Shown: one piece after another, positions 2,678-14,315 of the stretch
Numbering within the stretch: the stretch's first letter is position 1
Layout: every line of letters begins with the position of its first letter
DNA from: Nostoc punctiforme PCC 73102
GTDB taxonomy: Bacteria; Cyanobacteriota; Cyanobacteriia; Cyanobacteriales; Nostocaceae
DNA: 32,000 nucleotides
Assembly (NCBI RefSeq): GCF_000020025.1
Contig: NC_010628.1
Location: 7,290,001-7,322,000, forward strand
Direction of reading: 5' to 3'
Position numbers and translations under genes: made by a program
Notes under the pieces: model-generated
Databases searched by the model: none
The model's input: the letters and a program-made list of their open reading frames with translations, nothing else
Told to the model about the DNA's origin: nothing

Positions 2678-4377
2678 TTAGTTCTGTTGTGGTTTGAACA
2701 AATCCAAATCTGTCACAGCACCGATGCTGCTAGAAGATACCAGTTTGGCATATTTCGCCAACACGCCTTTGGTGTAACGTGGAGCGGGAGGTTGCCAATT
2801 AGCACGACGACGAGCTAATTCTTCTTCAGATATATTCAACTGCAAAAGGCGTGCGGGTGCATCAATGGTAATACTATCGCCTTCTTCAACAAGCGCGATC
2901 GCACCACCCACTGCTGCTTCTGGAGCAACATGACCAACCACCATGCCATAAGTACCGCCAGAAAAGCGCCCATCGGTAATTAATCCCACCGCATCACCCA
3001 AGCCAGCCCCGATAATTGCCGAAGTGGGAGCCAACATTTCTCGCATTCCAGGGCCGCCTTTGGGCCCTTCGTAGCGAATAACCAAAATATCACCAGCTTG
3101 AATTTTACCCGCCAAAATTGCATCTAAAGAGGCTTCTTCCGACTCAAACACCCGTGCAGGCCCGGTAATGACTGGTTTTTTCACGCCGGTAATTTTAGCG
3201 ACAGCCCCTTCCGTTGCCAGATTACCTCTGAGGATGGCTAAATGTCCTTGAGCATACATCGGGTTATTCCAAGCCCGAATCACATCTTGATTGGCAGATG
3301 GCTCTTCGGGTATGTCTGCTAATATCTCTGCAATGGTTTGACCGCTAATGGTGAGACTATCACCATGCAATAAGCCATGTGCGAGTAGCATCTTCATGAC
3401 TTGCGGAATGCCACCAGCTTTGTGCAAATCTGTAGCGACATATTTACCGCTTGGTTTTAGATCGCACAAAACGGGAACACGGGCGCGGATTGTTTCAAAG
3501 TCATCTAGGGTTAACTCTACATTCGCAGCGCGGGCGATCGCTAAGAAATGCAATACTGCATTGGTCGAACCACCCACCGCCATAATCACAGAGATGGCAT
3601 TCTCTATAGATTTACGGGTGATAATTTGCCGGGGTAAGATTTGCTTCTTGATGGCTTCGACTAGCACAAAGGCTGATTTTTCCGTGCTGTCGGCTTTTTC
3701 GGCATCTTCGGCTGCCATTGTGGAAGAATAGGGTAAACTCATTCCCATCGCTTCAAATGCTGAAGACATGGTGTTAGCTGTGAACATTCCCCCGCAGGAA
3801 CCAGCGCCAGGACAAGCGCGACTTTCGACTTCTAATAATTCCTTGTCGTCAATTTTTCCCGCACTGTATGACCAACAGCTTCAAAAGAACTGACAACGGT
3901 TAAATCGCGTCCGTTGTAGTGACCGGGTTTAATTGTGCCACCGTAAACGAATATTGCCGGGATATTCATCCGCGCGATCGCTAGCATTGCGCCTGGCATA
4001 TTCTTATCACAGCCACCAATGGCTAGTACACCATCCATACTTTGTCCGGTACAGGCGGTTTCGATGGAATCGGCGATAACTTCCCGCGATACTAGGGAAT
4101 ATTTCATCCCTTCGGTTCCCATTGAAATCCCGTCGCTGATGGTAATTGTGCCAAATATTTGCGGCATTGCTCCGGCGGTTTTAATCCCAGCTTCTGCCCT
4201 CTGTGCCAGTTGATTTATCCCCATATTGCAGGGGGTGATCGTGCTGTAACCGTTGGCTATACCGACAATGGCTTTATTGAAATCTTCATCTTTAAAACCA
4301 ACTGCCCGCAGCATAGCTCGATTTGGCGATCGCTGCACTCCTTGCGTCACTACTTGGCTTCTCAAATTCTCCGACAT
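2678..4377 (-). pseudogene. ilvD: dihydroxy-acid dehydratase IlvD, split by a 1-nt deletion (or a sequencing error)
   Basis: Two track ORFs (3832-4377 as the N-terminal part, 2678-3787 as the C-terminal part) together make a full IlvD. The N-terminal frame reads ...[19 protein letters not shown]. Shifting one base after GGTCA (between 3868 and 3869) restores ...[39 protein letters not shown]..., which joins the second ORF. The total span is 1700 nt, one short of a multiple of 3. Confidence 0.9.
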
Positions 4378-4482: not shown

Positions 4483-4886
4483 ATGGAACTGCGACACCTG
4501 CGCTACTTCATTGCTGTAGCTGAGGAACTACACTTTATTAAAGCCGCAGAGCAACTTCACATCGCTCAACCGCCCTAAGAGGATGTTTGAAAAGTTCTTT
4601 TCTTGGTAGAAAAACGTTTTAGATCCCCCTAAATCCCCCTTAAAAAGGGGGACTTTGATTCCGGTTCCCCCCTTTTTAAGGGGGGTTAGGGGGGATCAAT
4701 AAGTGCCTAAAATCACAGCCAACCACTTTTCAAACAACCTCTAAGAGGAGCAAATTCAGCAGCTAGAAGCATCCCTTGGGGTAGTTAGTAGAAACGGCTG
4801 TAGTGTGGCGACAAGAGGATATGACACCTGTTTTACGGGAGTTTCTACAAATTGTCAGAAGTGTCTGTGGTGAATTAATCAGTTAA
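4483..4886 (+). pseudogene. LysR-family regulator relic (HTH start, MITE insertion, large internal deletion, C-terminal tail)
   Basis: The sequence from ATG 4483 gives [31 protein letters not shown], a classic LysR HTH. It is then interrupted at 4576-4748 and resumes as EQIQQLEASLGV. After about 4790 a different frame gives VVWRQEDMTPVLREFLQIVRSVCGELIS* (LysR C-terminus-like). Roughly 230 codons of the effector domain are missing. It is divergent from ilvD. Confidence 0.75.
4576..4748. mobile_element. MITE inserted in the LysR relic
   Basis: Terminal inverted repeats GAGGATGTTTGAAAAGT (left) and ACTTTTCAAACAACCTC (right) differ by one mismatch. They are flanked by a repeated CTAA(GAGG). The centre is a long G/C-run palindrome, GATCCCCCTAAATCCCCCTTAAAAAGGGGGA ... 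CCCCCCTTTTTAAGGGGGGTTAGGGGGGATC. Confidence 0.7.
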
Positions 4887-4993
4887 AAAGGCGATCGAGT
4901 TAGGGTAACAATTCATCCCCAAGTACGAAATTGATTGGTATGTTTTCTACGGCTTTTATTACTCGTCTATCAAGCATCAAAGCTGAAAACAAC

Positions 4994-5145
4994 CTCTCAG
5001 GACTTACACACGGGTAACGGAAAACGTAGACACGTTCGCGTAGCGTCTCGTAGAGAAGTGGCTTGCCGCAGGCTACCACAGAGGGCGCAGAGGTCACGGA
5101 GTAATGAGAGTTTTAGAGGTTTTTTGCGTAAATCCTATTTCTAAA
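4994..5145. repeat. second copy of the GC-rich-core dispersed repeat
   Basis: It contains cgcgtagcgtctcgtagagaag. The ends ctctcaggacttac ... gcgtaaatcctatttc are roughly inverted. The track ORFs here (4900-5097, 4935-5144) are repeat-derived. Confidence 0.45.
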
Positions 5146-5448
5146 GCTGTATCAAATCCTATTTATACCAACAGAATTGGTAATTTTTTGCTAGACAAAT
5201 GCTCTGTTTATTGGAATTTGAGGCTTTTGAGCGATAATAGCAGCTAAAAAACAACCAATTGCAAAAATAATTTGCGCTTTGCAAGCAAACTTGCAATTTC
5301 TGTGATAGTCTTTTTGTATGGGGAATCAAGATAGCGAAAGCACAAAAAGTCGTCAGAGAGAAATGATATAAACTCAAAGACCATACTTTCGCCTTGGCAG
5401 ATATAAATTAAATCCGCTACGGCTTTTTGAAACTAAGAGACAAAGCCA

Positions 5449-6582
5449 ATGAAGCAGGATAGTGACCTCCGTAATAACTTGAAGTCCATTAGAACTCGCT
5501 TAGGTATGAGCCAACAAGATTTGGCTAACATCGCTAGTGTAACTCGTCAGACTATTAGTGGTGTAGAGTCGGGATTATATGCTCCCTCTGTTGCCATAAC
5601 ACTTCGCTTGGCCAAAGCGCTTGGCTGTCAAGTTGAGGATCTATTCTGGTTAGAGCGGGATTTACCTGAAATCGAAGCCGTCCTTGCCAAACCTGTTCCT
5701 AACGATCAGCAACTACGAGTTAGCGTGGCTCGTGTAGGAGGACAATGGATAGCTTATCCCTTGATTGGTAAGGATGCTTTTCGCCAAGATATGATTCCGG
5801 CTGATGGAGAAGGTACTAGCCAAATAGGTACAAATAAAGTTCGAGTCAGGCTACTAGATGATAATCTCGACACACTTCACAACACCATTGTGATAGCTGG
5901 TTGTGCCCCTGTGATTTCACTATGGGCAAGAGCCACCGAACGCTGGCATCCCCAACTGCGAGTTCAATATAACTTCGCCAATAGCATGGCTGCATTGCAC
6001 AGTCTATGCAGAGGTGAGGCGCACATCGCTGGGATGCATTTGTACGATCCTGAAACTGGTGAGTATAATACTCCCTTTGTTCGAGATGTTCTCGCTGGGA
6101 GAGAAGCAGTTCTGATTACCCTTGGTGTTTGGGAAGAGGGACTTTTGTTGAAGCCTGGCAACCCGATGGGAATTAGAACAGTTACTGACTTAGTTGCTGG
6201 GGGAGCGACTATTGTTAACCGCGAAATAGGTTCTGGTAGTCGGATGCTTTTGGAACAAACACTCCAAAAGGAGCAGATACCGTTCGATGCTGTTCAGGGC
6301 TTTGACAATGTACTCAAAAGTCACCAGGACGTTGCCCAAGCTGTAGGATTAGGAATTGCTGATGCTGGTATGAGTACGGCATCTGTAGCTACGGCTTTTG
6401 GGCTGGGATTTATCCCTTTACATCAGTCACGATATGATTTGGTGATTCTCAAGGAATATCTAGAAGAAGCACCTGTACAGCAGTTGCTTAGTACTTTGGG
6501 ACATCGGATGGTTCACTCACAATTTGAAATTCTTGGTGGTTACGATATCAGCAAAATTGGAGAAGTTGTAGCGGCTGTTTAG
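5449..6582 (+). CDS. XRE-type HTH regulator fused to a periplasmic-binding-protein-like (ModE/oxyanion-binding-like) domain; VnfR-like
   Basis: 377 aa. The N-terminus LKSIRTRLGMSQQDLANIASVTRQTISGVESGLYAPSVAITLRLAKALGCQVEDLF is an HTH_3/XRE motif. The remaining roughly 290 aa (IVIAGCAPVISLW...HIAGMHL...IVNREIGSGSR...ADAGMSTASVA) resembles the PBP-like domain found in molybdate-responsive regulators. It is co-directional with the nifH-like gene 494 nt downstream. Confidence 0.8.
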   Translation: MKQDSDLRNNLKSIRTRLGMSQQDLANIASVTRQTISGVESGLYAPSVAITLRLAKALGCQVEDLFWLERDLPEIEAVLAKPVPNDQQLRVSVARVGGQWIAYPLIGKDAFRQDMIPADGEGTSQIGTNKVRVRLLDDNLDTLHNTIVIAGCAPVISLWARATERWHPQLRVQYNFANSMAALHSLCRGEAHIAGMHLYDPETGEYNTPFVRDVLAGREAVLITLGVWEEGLLLKPGNPMGIRTVTDLVAGGATIVNREIGSGSRMLLEQTLQKEQIPFDAVQGFDNVLKSHQDVAQAVGLGIADAGMSTASVATAFGLGFIPLHQSRYDLVILKEYLEEAPVQQLLSTLGHRMVHSQFEILGGYDISKIGEVVAAV

Positions 6583-6921
6583 AGTGGATTGCAATGGTTG
6601 GTTGTGTGCTTAAAGGAATACTTGGCGTAAATTGAAATTCCTGCTGCAACCACTCTTGAGGTATGAGCAACCTTTAGAGAATTACAACAACTGATAATGC
6701 TGAGTTCGTAATTTTTCCAGCTTGGAATATGTAGCTTTCCTTTTTCCAATTAGTATTACTACCGTTAGAGAAATCATTTGAGTGAGCGGATGGTAATACT
6801 TGCAATATTCCTTGAGTGATGTCTTATTGCTCTAGCCATTTTAGTCAGAAAAAAACAATGACTAATGGCCAACGGAAACTTACCAAAACTTGAATATGTT
6901 CTGGATTCGGACTCTTTTTGC

Positions 6922-6979
6922 TGTAGAACGAGCGCCTCCAACAACGTTCTACATAAGGCCAGTGCTGTAATTTTACAAT
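6922..6979 (+). promoter_or_regulatory. candidate operator/promoter upstream of the nifH-like gene
   Basis: Perfect 9-bp inverted repeat TGTAGAACG (6922-6930) / CGTTCTACA (6945-6953) with a 14-nt spacer. It is followed by the 12-bp palindrome TGTAATTTTACA (6966-6977), which overlaps a TACAAT -10-like hexamer (6974-6979). This lies about 100-155 nt upstream of ATG 7077. Confidence 0.3.
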
Positions 6980-7070
6980 GCGAGTACCTCCGGCACAAAG
7001 TGCGTAGTTTACCGCCGTAGGCATCGCTTCATGAATCGACAGACCCACCAAACAAACAATTGCAGGATAA

Positions 7071-8042
<972 letters not shown>

Positions 8043-8085
8043 GCTTATTCTTCAGAATCAGGTGCTAAATACAAAGTAAATATTA

Positions 8086-8106
8086 GGTGGGCTATTCTCG
8101 CCCACC
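8086..8106 (+). terminator. GC-rich stem-loop 44 nt after the nifH-like stop
   Basis: GGTGGGC-tattctc-GCCCACC (7-bp stem, 7-nt loop). The downstream sequence ttctcacc is not a clean U-tract, so this could be an RNA-stabilising or processing hairpin rather than a terminator. Confidence 0.3.
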
Positions 8107-8413
8107 TTCTCACCAATCATTTAAAATGGAGGTAGTCGAATAGCTAATCTTAACTCTGCGCGTTTCTTTTTCACCGTGCTAATACTAATCAACTAACGTG
8201 TACAGGACAACATTAATAATTTAATAGTCTAGTTCATGTTTTTGTTTTCTCCTTCTCTAACCTAGATGATGTTTATGTTTTAGGGGATGGGAAATTCTCT
8301 TTCTCATTCCCTTTTCTGCATCTTTAGATACCACGGTGAATAAATGAAAATCCTCTTCAGCCTTTGGGAATTCAGCTAATATCTAAAAATTTTTACCTAT
8401 TGTCACCAAACAA

Positions 8414-9808
8414 ATGAATCCCACGCCAGGAAAAACCAACGATTCACTCAGTGACTCTAATTCTGAAGATGCTTGTCAGCAGCAGATACAAAAGAAAAAA
8501 AAGTCTTCCACACAATTACCCCAACCTGGAACTACTCAAGGGAGTTGCGCTTTTGATAGTGCAATGATGACTCTTGTACCAATCACTGATGCTGCTCATG
8601 TAGTTCACGGGCCAAGTGGCTGTGCTGCCAGTATTTGGGGAAGTTACAGCAGTCTCTCATCTGGTTCGATGCTGTACAAGATACGCTTTAGCAGCGACAT
8701 CGATGAGAACGATATCATCTTCGGTGGAGCCAAAAAGCTGTATAAAGGCATTTTAGAATTACAAAGACGCTACAAACCTGCGGCGGTATTTGTTTATTCC
8801 ACTTGCATCACCGCTTTGATTGGGGATGACATCGAGGGAGTTTGCAAAGATGCCACAGAGAAAACAGGAATACCCACTATCCCTGTACATTGCCCTGGAT
8901 TCATTGGGAACCAAAATTTGGGCAACCGTGTCGCTGGTGAAGCAATGCTTTCACACGTTATTGGAACAGCAGAACCAGATACAACTACACCTTATGATAT
9001 CAATCTAATTGGTGAATACAATATTGCAGGTGCAATATGGAATGTTCTACCGTTGTTGGAGAAATTAGGTATTAGAGTTTTGGCAAAAATTACAGGCGAT
9101 GCTGTCTACAAAGAAGTTTGCTATGCCCATCGTGCCAAACTTAATGTGATCCTCTCCTCCAAAGCACTAATCAATATGGCTAAAAGGATGGAAAAACAAT
9201 ATGGCATTCCTTATATTGAAGAGTCTATGTATGGGATAGAGCAAATCAATCAATGTCTAAGAAATATTGCTGTCAAGTTGGGTAATTCTAGTTTACAAGA
9301 ACGTACAGAAAAGCTAATTGCAGAAGAGACTGCTGCAATAGACGAAAAACTCGCTCTTTATATCACCCAATTACAAGGTAAGCGGGTTCTCCTTTCTATT
9401 GGAAGTTTCAAGAGCTGGTTGATTATCTTTGCTGCTAAGAAATTGGGGATGGAAGTTATTGCTATTAGTACTAATAATAATACTGAGGAGGATAGAATTA
9501 GAGTCAAAACTTTGCTGGGTCAAGATGGCATAATTCTAGAACAAAATAGTCCTCAAGAAATTTTACAGATAATTAACGCAAATCAAGCTGATATGTTAAT
9601 TGCTGATAAACACCATCAAGACACTTCTCTTACTGCTAGGATTCCATTCCTAGACGTTAATCAAGAACGCAACCATGCCTATGCAGGCTATATGGGAATT
9701 TTAGAGGTAGCACGAGAACTCTATGCTGCTTTTTACACCCCTGTGTGGGAGCAAGTATCTCAACCAGCCCCGTGGGAAACAGGAAATTCTCCAGAGGAGA
9801 ACATCTAA
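8414..9808 (+). CDS. nifE: NifE/VnfE-like nitrogenase cofactor scaffold subunit (divergent)
   Basis: 464 aa. Matches include QGSCAFDSAMMTLVPITDAAHVVHGPSGCA, VFVYSTCITALIGDDIEGVC, TTPYDINLIGEYNIAG, LEKLGIRVLAKITGDAVYKEVCYAHRAKLNV, and IPFLDVNQERNHAYAGYMGILEVAREL...PVWEQVSQPAPWE. These fit the NifE pattern as I remember it from Anabaena/Nostoc. Confidence 0.9.
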   Translation: MNPTPGKTNDSLSDSNSEDACQQQIQKKKKSSTQLPQPGTTQGSCAFDSAMMTLVPITDAAHVVHGPSGCAASIWGSYSSLSSGSMLYKIRFSSDIDENDIIFGGAKKLYKGILELQRRYKPAAVFVYSTCITALIGDDIEGVCKDATEKTGIPTIPVHCPGFIGNQNLGNRVAGEAMLSHVIGTAEPDTTTPYDINLIGEYNIAGAIWNVLPLLEKLGIRVLAKITGDAVYKEVCYAHRAKLNVILSSKALINMAKRMEKQYGIPYIEESMYGIEQINQCLRNIAVKLGNSSLQERTEKLIAEETAAIDEKLALYITQLQGKRVLLSIGSFKSWLIIFAAKKLGMEVIAISTNNNTEEDRIRVKTLLGQDGIILEQNSPQEILQIINANQADMLIADKHHQDTSLTARIPFLDVNQERNHAYAGYMGILEVARELYAAFYTPVWEQVSQPAPWETGNSPEENI

Positions 9809-11118
9809 TGGCGATTATTAGCGTTACGAGTACATCTGTTGCAGTTAATCCCCTCAAGCAAAGCCAGACTGTAGGTGCAGTTTTAGCCTTTTTGGGGTTG
9901 AAGGGAATAATGCCTTTGTTACACGGTTCTCAAGGCTGTACTGCTTTGACGAAGGCAGTATTAGTGCAGCATTTCCGTCAGACGATTCCCCTTTCTAGTA
10001 CGGCGATGACAGAAGTTGCAACCATCTTGGGTGGTGAGGAAAGGGTTGAACAAGCAATCTTGACTTTGGTGCAGAGATCCAAGCCAGAAATTATCGGTCT
10101 TTGTAGCACTGGACTGGTGGAAACCAGAGGCGATGATATGGGGCGCTTTGTTAAAGAGATTCGCCACCGTCACCCAGAACTAGATTATTTACCAATTGTG
10201 CTTGTCTCTACACCTGATTTCAAAGGTACATTACAGGATGGCTTTGCTGGTGCAGTCGAGAGTATAGTCAGGGAAATTCCTCAAAAAAGCTCCAAGCAAG
10301 ATGCTTGTCCTACACAAATCACTATTTTAGCGAGTTCTGCTTTCACACCAGGCGATGTACAGGAAATCAAAGAGATTGTCACTTCCTTTGGACTTGTACC
10401 TATTGTTGTACCTGACCTTTCTGGCGTACTAGATAGTCATATAGAAGATTCCTCTAGTGCCATTACAGCTAATGGCACTACATTGGCACAATTGCGTTCA
10501 ATTGGCACTTCTGTATTCACTTTGGCACTAGGTGAGAGTATGCGAGGTGCAGCGCAAATTTTGGATCGGAGATTCAATATACCCTATGAAGTATTTAGTG
10601 AACTGACGGGACTACTAGCAGTAGATAAATTCTTGCAAGCATTGGCAGATATCAGTGGTGTCAGCGTACCGGAGAAATACCGCCGTCAACGCCGTCAGCT
10701 AAAACATGTGATGTTAGAGAATCACTTTTACTTTGGTTGCAAGCGAGTTGCTTTGGCGCTGGAACCCGATTTACTTTGGTCAACAGTTTCTTTTTTGCGA
10801 TCGCTTGGAGTTGAAATTCACGCAGCAGTGACAACAACACGCTTTCCTCTGTTAGAAAAACTTCCGATTCTTAGCGTCACTATCGGCGATTTGGAAGACT
10901 TTGAGCAACTGGCGGTTGGATCTGATTTGCTGATTACCAACTCTCATGGGGTAGCGATCGCTCAACGCTTAAAAATTCCTCTCTATCGTCAAGGGATTCC
11001 CATTTTTGACCGCTTAGATCACAATCAATTTACCAAAGTTGGCTATCGAGGTACTATGCAGTTTTTGTTTGATATTGGCAATCTGTTTTTAGAGGCTGAA
11101 GCAAAGATTAAGCATTAA
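9808..11118 (+). CDS. nifN: NifN/VnfN-like nitrogenase cofactor scaffold subunit
   Basis: I prefer the ATG at 9808, which overlaps the nifE-like stop as TAATG. It gives MAIISVTSTSVAVNPLKQSQTVGAVLAFLGLKGIMPLLHGSQGCTALTKAVLVQHFRQTIPLSSTAMTE..., a typical NifN N-terminus. The C-terminus LLITNSHGVAIAQRLKIPLYRQGIPIFDRL..VGYRGT also fits. The track start at 9745 would add 21 non-homologous residues inside nifE. Confidence 0.9.
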   Translation: MAIISVTSTSVAVNPLKQSQTVGAVLAFLGLKGIMPLLHGSQGCTALTKAVLVQHFRQTIPLSSTAMTEVATILGGEERVEQAILTLVQRSKPEIIGLCSTGLVETRGDDMGRFVKEIRHRHPELDYLPIVLVSTPDFKGTLQDGFAGAVESIVREIPQKSSKQDACPTQITILASSAFTPGDVQEIKEIVTSFGLVPIVVPDLSGVLDSHIEDSSSAITANGTTLAQLRSIGTSVFTLALGESMRGAAQILDRRFNIPYEVFSELTGLLAVDKFLQALADISGVSVPEKYRRQRRQLKHVMLENHFYFGCKRVALALEPDLLWSTVSFLRSLGVEIHAAVTTTRFPLLEKLPILSVTIGDLEDFEQLAVGSDLLITNSHGVAIAQRLKIPLYRQGIPIFDRLDHNQFTKVGYRGTMQFLFDIGNLFLEAEAKIKH

Positions 11119-11512
11119 ACAGATTAGCAGTTATTGTTCGATTCATCTAAGCAACGAACTAGCCACATTCCAAGCAGGTTATCGGCGAATCCAGTATTAC
11201 TCTCAACAAAGAATGAAGCTTTTTTACACTACAGCCCTAATTATTGCTTACCAAAATCAGGCATAAGTCCGTATATTAACCTTGGACTGGCAAGAGTTTT
11301 TACCCTGGCACATAATCAATCGTGAGGATTTTCCTACCAAGGGCGCAACTGGACTAGAGGTGCTGATTCAGGGAATTTTTGACAAAAAATTGCTTCGCCG
11401 ACTTTTTTACTACACAATACTCCAAAAATATTTGTGCTAAGGCTGGTAAATCCTGAGTTATCAGTGATTAATAGAAAAAATAATTCCAATTCACAATGCC
11501 TAATTTTGTGTT

Positions 11513-11869
11513 ATGAATAAATCCCTTCTGCCCGCAGATGATCTGCCTCCAACTGGAGCAACTATACTTAATGAGTTATTTTACAGGCAACTAGAAGAAG
11601 CTACGTGTAGGCGATTTTATCAAGCCTGCCCCACACTTATGCGAGTTTTACTATCAAATTGTCACTGGTATTTCAAAATAAATGCTAGTCCTCTGATGTT
11701 AATCATTATCTGCTATGACATAGAAAGCTATCTGCATATTGTTGATGCTATTCCACAGTTCATCAAACAGTTGAAGCAATTTTCTAACAAGTCAAAAATT
11801 CAGCTTTTTCCACCAGATAATAAAGGAGAACCTTGGGAAATAGAGATTGAAGAAACATCAGATGAATAA
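11513..11869 (+). CDS. hypothetical protein (118 aa), no family recognised
   Basis: Clean ORF with non-repetitive composition, co-directional with the nif-like genes and 395 nt downstream of them. I recognise no motif. Confidence 0.45.
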
Positions 11870-12428
11870 GCGATCGCATCATGGAATTTGATGAATTCAC
11901 AGTTTGGGGACAATATCAACTAGCTATTAGTACTACCTTCGGCTGACTGTTGAGCCGTGCAATTAATGGCTCGGCATCAATTTGGGGAACCATAGGTGTA
12001 AGTTTTGCGCTGGTAGGTATTTTGCTTTGATTAGCGATCGCTCCCACAGTTTCCGCTCACGAACCATAGGTAATAGAGGTGAAAGTGGAAGAGGGAGTGC
12101 AGACGGTGCAGGTGAGGCTAGATTACCCAGAGCAGGGAGAAAGGTACTGAGAAACTTCGAGCGATCGCACCCAATTCAATTCTCAATTCTTTCCTTTAAA
12201 TCATTGAATGTATAAATCACAACATTAATGCCAGAAATAATTATATATGCTGGATACTTTTTTGTCTTTCTATCGGTTGATGCACAGAAAATTTCTGAAT
12301 AGTTTCCTTAAAGAAGAACAAGACAATCTGTCGGAGAACTATTAGTTACAAGTTGAGCTTTTAATACTACTGAAGTTTCTTAGAACTACAATCAGCAGCT
12401 CAAAATCTGATGAAAGGAATCGAAAGTT

Positions 12429-14315
12429 ATGGCAAAAGTTGTTGGAATTGATTTAGGGACAACTAACTCTTGTATTGCAGTCATCGAAGGCGGACAACCA
12501 CTCGTGATTGCGAATGCAGAAGGACAACGCATCACTCCCTCTGTAGTTGCATATACAAAAACAGGCGAACGTTTGGTTGGTCAAATTGCTCGACGACAGG
12601 CGGTAATGAATCCAGAGAATACGTTCTACTCAGTCAAACGGTTTATCGGACGCAAACACGATGAAATCACCCACGAAGCGAGTGAAGTTTCTTACAAAGT
12701 CGTTCGCGATCGCAACGGTAACGTCAAACTCGATTGTCCGGCGCTCAAAAAACAATTCGCGCCTGAAGAAATTTCCGCTCAAGTTTTGCGAAAACTTACA
12801 GATGATGCCAGCAAATATCTAGGAGAACCCATTACGCAAGCAGTCATTACTGTGCCTGCTTACTTCAATGATTCGCAACGACAAGCGACCAAAGATGCAG
12901 GCAAAATTGCAGGGCTAGAAGTACTCCGCATCATTAACGAACCTACGGCTGCGGCACTTGCTTATGGTTTAGACAAAAAGGGCAACGAAACAATCTTAGT
13001 CTTTGACTTAGGAGGCGGCACGTTCGACGTTTCAATTCTAGAAGTTGGAGAAGGTGTGTTTGAAGTCAAAGCCACGAGTGGGGATACGCATTTAGGCGGC
13101 GATGACTTTGATAAAAAGATTGTCGATTATGTTGCAAATGATTTTCAGCGCCACGAAGGTATTGATTTACGCAAAGATAAGCAAGCCCTGCAACGGTTAA
13201 CTGAAGCCGCAGAAAAAGCCAAAATTGAACTCTCTAGCGCTACCCAAACAACGATTAATCTCCCCTTCATCACGGCAACTCAAGAGGGACCAAAGCACCT
13301 CGATATAACTTTAACTAGGGCGGAGTTTGAGAAACTCTGCGCTGACTTGCTCGATCGCTGCCGCATTCCAGTTGAGCAAGCTCTCAACGATGCCAATCTG
13401 AACAATGCCAATCTCGATGAAGTTGTTCTAGTAGGCGGTTCCACCCGAATTCCCGCCGTGCAACAACTCGTCAAACGCATCACAGGCAAAGATCCAAATC
13501 AGGGAGTGAACCCGGATGAAGTAGTTGCTGTGGGTGCAGCAATTCAGGGTGGAGTACTGGCGGGAGAAGTGAAAGATGTGCTGCTGCTAGATGTAACACC
13601 GCTTTCTTTAGGGGTGGAAACAATGGGCGGGGTAATGACAAAAATTATTCCCCGCAACACGACGATTCCGGTGAAGAAATCCGAGACGTTTTCAACCGCC
13701 GCTGATGGCCAGTCGAATGTCGAAATTCATGTTCTGCAAGGAGAACGGGAACTTGTGGCAGACAATAAGAGTTTAGGTACGTTTCGGCTCGATGGCATTC
13801 CTCCGGCTCCGCGTGGAGTACCTCAAATTGAAGTGACGTTCGACCTCGATGCAAATGGGTTACTATCGGTAACTGCTAAAGATCGCGCCACTGGTAAAGA
13901 ACAATCGATTACAATCTCAGGCGCTTCGACGCTGGATAAACGCGATGTGGAACGCATGGTACGAGATGCAGAAACTCATGCCCAAGAAGATCGCCAACGC
14001 CGCGAGCAAATCGACACCAAAAATAATGCGGACTCGCTGGTTTATCAGGCAGAAAAACAACTGCAAGACTTGAATGGTCGAGTTTCTCAAGCAGATAAAA
14101 GTAGGGCGCAACAATTGATTGACGAGTTGCGATCGGCAATTGAGCGAGAAAACTACGAGCAAATGCGATCGCTCACTACCAATCTTCAACAAGCGCTCAT
14201 GCAAATCGGTAGCGCCGTTTACGCCCAAGCTAGCACAGCTACTAACAATCCTAATCCCACAAATCAGCCAACCGGACAAAACGACGATGTGATTGATGCT
14301 GATTTTGTTGGCTAA
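12429..14315 (+). CDS. dnaK: Hsp70 chaperone DnaK
   Basis: 628 aa with [38 protein letters not shown] and the C-terminal DDVIDADF motif. Confidence 0.97.

Follow-up and report, generated by a model that had tools for sequence, protein, structure and literature searches.

A conserved regulator–nifH–nifE–nifN module of Nostocales in which the NifE paralogue has lost known cofactor-precursor ligands

Organization of the locus

This report concerns a gene module in a stretch of 32,000 nucleotides (hereafter the window) from Nostoc punctiforme PCC 73102 (NCBI RefSeq assembly GCF_000020025.1, contig NC_010628.1, positions 7,290,001 to 7,322,000 of the forward strand). Four intact, co-directional open reading frames (ORFs), designated R, H, E and N, encode a regulator, a nitrogenase iron protein and paralogues of NifE and NifN (Table 1); proteins of the module type are called H*, E* and N*. 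The pair R-H has already been described as homologues of vnfR2 and vnfH in a strain that lacks vnfDGK. What is new is the widespread R-H-E-N module, the selection acting on it, the loss of ligands from E* and its neighbourhood of molybdenum (Mo) genes. An initial annotation, made from the sequence alone, had recognised the four ORFs as a regulator-nifH-nifE-nifN module, and their positions were confirmed, together with the domain composition of the regulator, the integrity of the iron protein and the translational coupling of the NifE-like and NifN-like genes.

The E protein is identical to ACC84197.1 (WP_012412140.1), encoded on the 8,234,322-bp chromosome of PCC 73102. The ATG of N at 9808 overlaps the stop codon of E as TAATG and yields a product of 436 amino acids; a longer ORF starting from GTG at 9745 was rejected in favour of this start. 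When the 32 kb were searched by tblastn with NifD, NifK, NifX, DUF269, NifW, HesA, HesB, FdxH and NifV, and with VnfDG, VnfK, the VnfE/N linked to vnfK, and VupA, only H, E and N were matched. The annotated absence of any other nif or vnf gene from the window thus holds for D, K, X, V, FdxH, VnfDG and VnfK, among queries that did not include NifB, NifS and NifU. The ordinary nif cluster of N. punctiforme PCC 73102 is located elsewhere in the genome (PMC2821919).

Table 1. Coordinates in the window of the module genes and of associated features
Feature	Position	Strand	Description
R	5449..6582	+	VnfR2-type regulator: XRE/Cro-type HTH and PF12727 PBP-like (molybdate-binding type) domain
H*	7077..8042	+	Nitrogenase iron protein of the VnfH type; ~35 aa at the C-terminus form a conserved tail
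E*	8414..9808	+	NifE paralogue; [4Fe-4S] ligands present, precursor-binding residues lost
N*	9808..11118	+	NifN paralogue; S41 and C44 kept; R54Q, R/K390Q
Conserved non-coding block	5255..5448	+	Precedes R; putative 5' leader with promoter and operator
Conserved block	6583..6650	+	Directly after the R stop codon; most columns >=95% conserved in 63 loci
IR1	6835..6869	+	GCCATT(TT)AGTCA-N10/11-TGACTAATGGC
IR2	6922..6953	+	TGTAGAACG-N14-CGTTCTACA; lies 123 nt before the start codon of H; putative operator or stem-loop at the 5' end of the mRNA
Stem-loop	8085..8107	+	43 nt after the H stop codon; -15.1 kcal/mol, z -4.9
Second stem-loop in H-E spacer	8282..8312	+	-19.1 kcal/mol, z -3.7
c6 relic	11138..11428	+	C-terminal third of an HsdR_N-like gene
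c5	11513..11869	+	Conserved 118-aa protein near the module in 44 loci

The iron protein and the NifE and NifN paralogues

H* exceeds the cut-off of the nifH model TIGR01287 (462.5 bits against 394.35) and shares 90% of its residues with Nodularia NifH1. Its sequence shows the P-loop (GKGGIGKS), the switch regions and the cluster-cysteine motifs CAGRG and VCGGF (in DVVCGGF), by which H* is predicted to be a complete ATP-dependent iron protein. The C-terminal tail (7944-8039) is conserved in nearly all module-linked copies, including those of the basal Scytonema, and is absent from Nodularia NifH1.

E* scores 565.7 bits with the nifE model TIGR01283, whose cut-off is 505.1, and N* scores 567 bits with the nifN model TIGR01285 (326.8). 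E* was aligned to A. vinelandii NifE and, by MAFFT, to 56 conventional cyanobacterial NifE; the E* clade is represented by 122 sequences, and residue roles are given in A. vinelandii numbering. The ligands of the [4Fe-4S] O-cluster, C45, C70 and C131 (A. vinelandii Cys37, Cys62 and Cys124), are present in 122/122 E*, and the O-cluster residues S41 and C44 of N* in 72/72 sequences. The site that handles the cofactor precursor appears to have been dismantled. The position of Cys15, occupied by Ser17 in the window, holds Cys in none of the 122 E* as against all 56 conventional NifE, and that of Cys25 (Ser32 in the window) holds Cys in about 1% of E* and 100% of conventional NifE. An alignment-free count over the 44 residues that precede the first cluster Cys gives no Cys in 109/122 E* and two in 56/56 conventional NifE; Cys21 of the window is lineage-specific, Arg being found there in close relatives. 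Cys250, invariant in conventional NifE (56/56), is replaced by Ser248 in the window and by Ser in 106, Phe in 13 and Asp, Trp or Ala in one each of the clade. Conventional NifE has Arg at position 70, Lys at 357 and Lys at the pocket position 160, where the window has Y78, N355 and Q167 and the clade has Tyr, Asn/Ser/Asp and Gln, respectively. The second ligand, Gln419, is kept in the window and in conventional NifE and is variable in the clade, and the equivalent of K252 is kept in the window.

The pocket has also acquired features of its own. Its loop GGVKSWS has become GSFKSWL..F, and H159, C160, Q167, R91, F332, L336 and F339 are new conserved pocket residues. Of these, His159-Cys160, newly conserved in 98% of the clade, aligns with the Cys of VnfD (VECPGF) and of the VnfE linked to vnfK (IHCEGF). 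In N*, R54Q and R/K390Q neutralise two basic residues of the proposed precursor tunnel relative to A. vinelandii and Nodularia NifN.

In A. vinelandii NifE, C15 and C25 form a surface docking site that receives NifB-co, and C250A abolishes FeMo-co formation (PMC13128457), while C250, Q419, R70, K252 and K357 surround the internal L-cluster (PMC13031127). Purifying selection is unchanged (omega 0.13-0.19) in the E* subclade that carries Phe at the Cys250 position, which argues that this position is no longer a required ligand in E*. Searching 1.84 billion representative proteins showed that C250, R70 and K357 are kept in 12 of the 13 top-scoring full-length NifE-family representatives and that the thirteenth (P0174) keeps C250 and R70 and not K357. 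Six other proteins outside the E* clade (P0175, P0182, P0185, P0192, P0206 and P0228) also lack an equivalent of Cys250; NifE is their best family, at 284-384 bits, below the cut-off of 505. On these residues E* is judged not to be an ordinary NifE, the known cofactor-precursor ligands being lost; its initial naming as NifE stands as far as the profile score goes and fails at the precursor ligands.

NifH together with NifEN is the set that inserts Mo and homocitrate into the nitrogenase cofactor. The module was considered as a canonical, metal-regulated spare assembly line, one of three options offered by the initial annotation, in which E*N* and H* would mature FeMo-co or FeV-co like NifEN and NifH and feed NifDK when Mo is scarce. 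The equivalog scores of E and N, the intact [4Fe-4S] ligands, the closeness of H* to NifH1 and a plausible regulation by Mo (PMC4284476) speak for it. Such a line is nevertheless unlikely, being disfavoured by the clade-wide loss of the equivalents of Cys15, Cys25, Cys250, Arg70 and Lys357, by the replacement of position 250 with Ser, Phe, Asp, Trp or Ala under unchanged purifying selection, by the null phenotype of C250A and by the retention of C250 and R70 in all 13, and of K357 in 12, of the top NifE-family representatives. The vnf clusters, moreover, have an E/N pair of their own, linked to vnfK, with a Cys250 equivalent.

Distribution, selection and phylogeny

Loci were scanned with one genome per species. 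Close relatives of E occur at 80 loci, as part of the R-H-E-N module of Nostocales, and full-length R, H, E and N stand in the same order in 54 of them. The other 26 are mostly cut by contig ends, a few having H, R or N lost or truncated; five loci retain E*N* without a full H. Genes of the D/K type were found within 10 kb of the module at one locus only. It is common in terrestrial and symbiotic Nostocales, such as the Nostoc of lichens, bryophytes and cycads. Two copies are carried by the Peltigera membranacea cyanobiont 210A (L020, L051) and by Nostoc sp. CCY 9925 (L027, L035), and in Nostoc sp. C057 the module lies both on the chromosome and on a plasmid, the respective E proteins being 97% and 89% identical to that of the window.

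Compared with 14 orthologues, the ratio of nonsynonymous to synonymous substitution rates (dN/dS, omega) comes to about 0.1 in R, 0.00-0.07 in H, 0.07-0.17 in N and 0.10-0.22 in E, where it rises to 0.31 in the comparison with L007, the closest relative; values of 0.07-0.16 were obtained for dnaK and dnaJ nearby. R, H, E and N are under purifying selection. A ratio near 1, which had been named as the sign of a decaying copy, is seen for none of the four genes, all of which lie far below it, and the initial argument from intact ORFs amid pseudogenes is borne out by these values and by the degraded neighbours. N. punctiforme has no c4 left, only remnants of c6 and of a LysR-type gene, and an ilvD with a frameshift, but intact copies of R, H, E, N and c5.

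In a neighbour-joining tree rooted on A. vinelandii NifE and calculated without support values, E* is sister to the conventional NifE of Nostocales. The basal member, from Scytonema PCC 10023 in an R-H-E context, has all three Cys; one or two of them are missing from intermediate sequences, and none is left in the remainder of the clade. One intermediate that retains Cys250 (P0055) lies on a 1.6-kb contig.

The regulator and conserved non-coding elements

R matches the Pfam families HTH_3 (E 2.6e-12) and PF12727 PBP_like (E 2.4e-66). It shows the features of a VnfR-type protein, an N-terminal helix-turn-helix (HTH) and a C-terminal PF12727 domain encoded directly upstream of a vnfH-type gene, and at least 120 close orthologue clusters were found in Nostoc by protein search. 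In VnfR itself, an N-terminal HTH is combined with a domain that binds molybdate and differs from that of ModE (PMC12327845), and VnfR1 and VnfR2 of A. variabilis have been shown to be Mo-dependent repressors (PMC4284476; PMC12327845), in agreement with what the initial annotation had stated of them. The Mo-repressed vnfR2 promoter of A. variabilis drives vnfR2 and vnfH, the vnfH mRNA being a processed transcript (PMC4284476). By analogy, R would bind DNA and repress in a Mo-dependent manner. Pratte and Thiel have identified the R and H genes of N. punctiforme as homologues of vnfR2 and vnfH (nucleotide identities of 75% and 82%), have noted that this genome lacks vnfDG, vnfK and vupABC, and have suggested that the rest of a vnf cluster was lost or that a nifH copy was recruited later; the true vnfH of the N. 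variabilis group was placed far from these copies (PMC8461463). No mention of the E-N pair was found in the published literature on N. punctiforme, among searchable papers.

The block of about 190 nt upstream of R, most columns of which are at least 95% identical in 61 distinct loci, holds the palindrome GCAAA-N5-TTTGC and GCAA repeats and may function as promoter and operator. The block that follows the R stop codon folds no better than shuffled sequence (z -0.39). Further into the R-H spacer, IR1 has arms of 11 bp in many loci, with a compensatory C>T / G>A pair in two (L009, L019). IR2 is matched exactly in 39 loci, once in each, and distant loci have another stem (GTACGGT/ACCGTAC) around a similar loop core, CACCTC(C)AA, at an offset different from that of IR2. 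The IR2 loop (6931-6944) reads AGCGCCTCCAACAA in the window, AGCACCTCCAAYRA in most loci and CATCACCTCAA in distant loci. To judge from its sequence, this loop is similar to the end of 16S rRNA that carries the anti-Shine-Dalgarno, and base pairing with a ribosome-binding site is conceivable. Positions 6983-7030 are the sole part of the R-H spacer that is not conserved in other loci.

The H-E spacer is 371 nt long in the window and 371 +/- 5 nt in most Nostoc loci. The first of its two stem-loops is conserved in the alignment and was matched by none of 200 shuffles. The repeats and stem-loops of the two spacers would fit a processed and stabilised message like that of vnfH in A. variabilis. 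No RNA family was found by an Rfam scan of 4800-12500 at E <= 1, scans for sigma-70 promoter and terminator consensus gave no more matches than shuffled sequence, and no NtcA site of the form GTAN8TAC occurs near the module. As a candidate motif of a VnfR regulon, TTGCAAG-N4-CTTGCAA upstream of R was dropped, as it is common neither to other R loci nor to the vnf and mod regions of C057.

Companions, molybdenum genes and linkage to vnf

Two small proteins without family assignment, c4 and c5, are encoded downstream of N or divergently upstream of R. c4, which has three conserved Cys, lies near the module in 50 loci. c5 has an invariant C50-H51-W52-Y53 (SNCHWYF motif) and a conserved C67, and its dN/dS is 0.09-0.30. 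It matches no family of Pfam or NCBIfam, and its AlphaFold2 model (predicted local distance difference test score 79.7) matches no fold in the PDB; in this model C50/H51 and C67 lie at opposite ends of a beta-hairpin, in an arrangement compatible with a metal site. A third companion, c6 (Pfam HSDR_N; about 310-355 aa), follows N in 30 loci, and its remnant in the window is 48-67% identical by tblastn to residues ~180-330 of c6 proteins. The initial annotation had regarded the flanks as unrelated; its downstream "orphan ORF" is c5, which is conserved and accompanies the module.

At 24 of the 80 loci, genes related to Mo are found no more than 10 kb from E*: Mop/molbindin (20 loci), modA (7), modBC (4), modD (3) and a vupA-like gene (1). 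On plasmid p057_H of Nostoc sp. C057 the order is R-H-E-N-c6-c4-c5-modB-modA-porin-Mop-HesA-like-Mop...ModD. In a distant relative (P0092, on the metagenome contigs L094/L095), a shortened NifH-like gene of 240 aa is followed by an E-like gene without N, and a TOBE/Mop gene, an R-like regulator, an Oxidored_molyb protein and an HsdR_N-like gene are nearby.

Linkage to vnf genes is found in several genomes. The module and vnfDGK share one replicon, at least 43 kb apart, in three Nostoc plasmids. Calothrix UHCC 0171 has the order vnfDG-vnfK-(divergent E/N pair)-cydAB-E*-N*, and in GCA_000315585.1 a divergent Mop-R-H-E-N lies about 5 kb from vnfDG. Two divergent genes annotated as "nitrogenase component 1" stand right after vnfK (21625-24889 of L088, on p057_H; 2186-5408 of L083). 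These E/N genes score 155-170 bits on the NifE model, and the first keeps the O-cluster cysteines and the equivalent of Cys250/Cys275. E*N* is thus an additional element of the Mo-independent gene set, beside the E/N pair linked to vnfK. The module is kin to the vnf gene set, yet it is kept in genomes without vnfDGK, namely N. punctiforme, UCD121 and N. linckia NIES-25 (PMC8461463; loci L008, L068).

Such genomes lend themselves to the view, suggested in the literature for the R-H pair, that a lost vnf cluster has left behind a non-functional relic whose genes are not yet degraded; a relic of a vnf-type system was also among the options of the initial annotation. N. punctiforme has no vnfDG, vnfK or vupABC (PMC8461463), the module is elsewhere found beside or inside vnf clusters and on vnf plasmids, c4, c6, LysR and ilvD next to it are degraded, and R, H or N is truncated in some genomes. 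However, omega is far below 1 for all four genes, also between close relatives of N. punctiforme, 54 of the 80 loci are intact, the non-coding block upstream of R is conserved to at least 95% in 61 loci, and the [4Fe-4S] ligands are invariant in 122 sequences. The kinship to vnf stands (beside vnfDG, inside the Calothrix vnf cluster and on vnf plasmids), and a non-functional state of genes that are intact and selected is highly unlikely.

Flanking region in the window

Upstream of the module, ilvD (2678-4377, minus strand) is intact in Nostoc sp. LEGE 12447, whereas in the window a frameshift near 3868-3886 divides it into two ORFs; public assemblies contain no exact match to the truncated product, so that the frameshift is read from the window sequence alone. 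A LysR-type gene (4483-4575 and 4785-4883, plus strand), which in LEGE 12450/12447 encodes 298 aa, has been reduced to the codons for residues 1-31 and 266-298, and about 140 nt at 4998-5136 are inserted that are not found in relatives. Short-read contigs of Logan with the exact R gene always stop at about 5072-5081 and 6834-7026, and H-E-N contigs begin at 6999; these contig ends indicate dispersed repeats on both sides of R. Downstream of the module are dnaK and dnaJ.

Discussion

The module resembles several known systems in part. As in vnfR2-vnfH of A. variabilis ATCC 29413, a VnfR-type gene stands directly upstream of a nifH paralogue, but in N. punctiforme and about 70 other genomes R-H is followed by E*-N*, and N. 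punctiforme lacks vnfDGK and vupABC (PMC8461463). With NifEN of A. vinelandii (PDB 3PDI, 9IAO) it shares family and fold (E* 462 bits to 3pdi_A, N* 391 bits to 3pdi_B), the [4Fe-4S] ligands, translational coupling of E and N and an iron protein encoded alongside. It differs in that E* has no Cys15/Cys25 docking site, Cys250, Arg70 or Lys357, that N* is not followed by nifX and does not stand beside nifHDK, in contrast to the nifHDK-nifENX cluster of Nodularia, and that a gene for a Mo-sensor-type repressor is included outside the main nif cluster. The cyanobacterial vnfEN linked to vnfK is likewise a D/K/E/N-family pair tied to a Mo-independent system, and it has the HC motif of E* 159-160 (IHCEGF against VHCPGF), whereas its identity to E* is only ~26% and it keeps the Cys250/Cys275 equivalent. 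That pair is said, after work by Thiel in 1996, to be needed for the V-nitrogenase of A. variabilis. To DPOR (ChlL/ChlNB), COR and CfbCD there is a resemblance in architecture only: these reductases combine an ATP-dependent iron protein with a D/K-family heterotetramer whose sole conserved metal site is an inter-subunit [4Fe-4S] cluster, without ligands for a complex cofactor. The sequence pattern of E*N* would fit this, but His159-Cys160 of E* could be a ligand; E* and N*, at 65% and 72% identity, are much closer to true NifE and NifN than to any of these reductases, and DPOR, BchX and CfbC/D profiles score far below their cut-offs on the module proteins.

We favour, at about even probability, a functional accessory module under Mo control that arose by duplication of cyanobacterial nifH-nifEN and in which the iron protein and the [4Fe-4S] cluster form a redox pair with a changed substrate, possibly in the handling of a heterometal. 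If R acts as its counterparts in A. variabilis do, it would repress its own promoter and the downstream genes in the presence of molybdate, and a shortage of Mo would permit expression of the operon. How stable and how abundant the messages of H and of E-N are, relative to each other, may then depend on the stem-loops of the two spacers (R-H and H-E). As read from the motifs, H* would act as a complete ATP-dependent iron protein and E*N* would retain the [4Fe-4S] site between the subunits. E* would be unable to receive, hold and convert NifB-co or the L-cluster as NifEN does, because the docking cysteines, Cys250, Arg70 and Lys357 are gone, an interpretation guided by the structures of NifEN. 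With the handling of the L-cluster lost, E*N* would take up electrons from H* at its [4Fe-4S] cluster and pass them on to a substrate that is not an L-cluster at the canonical site; the transfer from H* to this cluster is itself predicted from the conserved ligands and motifs. The Mo-sensor-type regulator and the recurrent Mop, modABC and modD neighbours point to a step in the handling of a heterometal (Mo or V) for nitrogenase cofactor synthesis under Mo scarcity, and it fits this proposal that cyanobacteria have no NifQ (PMC4284476).

Several observations weigh against this interpretation. By the equivalog cut-offs of NCBI, E* still counts as NifE and N* as NifN. Iron could in principle be ligated by Ser248, and His159-Cys160 might serve as a replacement ligand. 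In a few genomes H, R or N is missing or truncated, so that the parts are not all indispensable, and the tree that places E* is without supports. Regulation and gene neighbourhood are the whole basis of the role in heterometal handling, which is accordingly given as a possibility: the association with Mo genes is seen in only 30% of loci, on contigs of varying length, and tblastn with ModA, ModBC, Mop and ModD found no Mo gene in the 32-kb window. The expression and function of the vnfH homologue of N. punctiforme are not known (PMC8461463).

A non-catalytic E*N* would also accommodate the loss of the cofactor site together with the retention of the iron-protein docking region around the [4Fe-4S] cluster. 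It might be a docking partner, chaperone or regulator that binds the iron protein or apo-dinitrogenase, or that relays the Mo status to the assembly machinery; the conserved extra C-terminal tail of H* could mediate a special interaction, and five loci keep E*N* without a full H. But the absolute conservation of all cluster ligands and an H* competent as an ATPase suggest that electron transfer still matters, and the pocket residues have not drifted but have been exchanged for the new conserved set described above, which leaves a purely non-catalytic role improbable.

Of the initial options, a stand-alone H+EN reductase comes closest to the sequences, although the link to Mo argues against the part of that proposal in which its role is unrelated to nitrogenase metals. 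A more specific version of the redox module favoured here, to which we assign a rather low probability, is that E*N* and the VnfH-type H* constitute a young, nitrogenase-like two-component enzyme derived from genuine NifEN in heterocystous cyanobacteria, which, driven by ATP, would send electrons through the retained [4Fe-4S] cluster to reduce or mobilise molybdate or vanadate for cofactor synthesis under Mo scarcity, with the small Cys/His proteins c4 and c5 as carriers, and would stand in for the missing NifQ. If this were true, a maturase would have been caught in the act of becoming a new enzyme and a functional stand-in for NifQ.

E* and N* are publicly annotated as bona fide NifE and NifN, though E* lacks residues known for precursor handling, and censuses of diazotrophs that count nifE and nifN may include a protein that is probably not a maturase. 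The ordered loss of ligands, starting from a basal member with all of them, offers a natural experiment on change of function in the D/K/E/N family, and N. punctiforme ATCC 29133 is a genetically tractable model that carries the locus. Limitation of nitrogen fixation by Mo is an active question in terrestrial and symbiotic Nostocales, where a pair of an iron protein and a NifEN derivative, predicted to be Mo-repressed and kept whether or not a V-nitrogenase is present, suggests that these organisms adapt to scarce Mo in a further way that has so far gone unnoticed.

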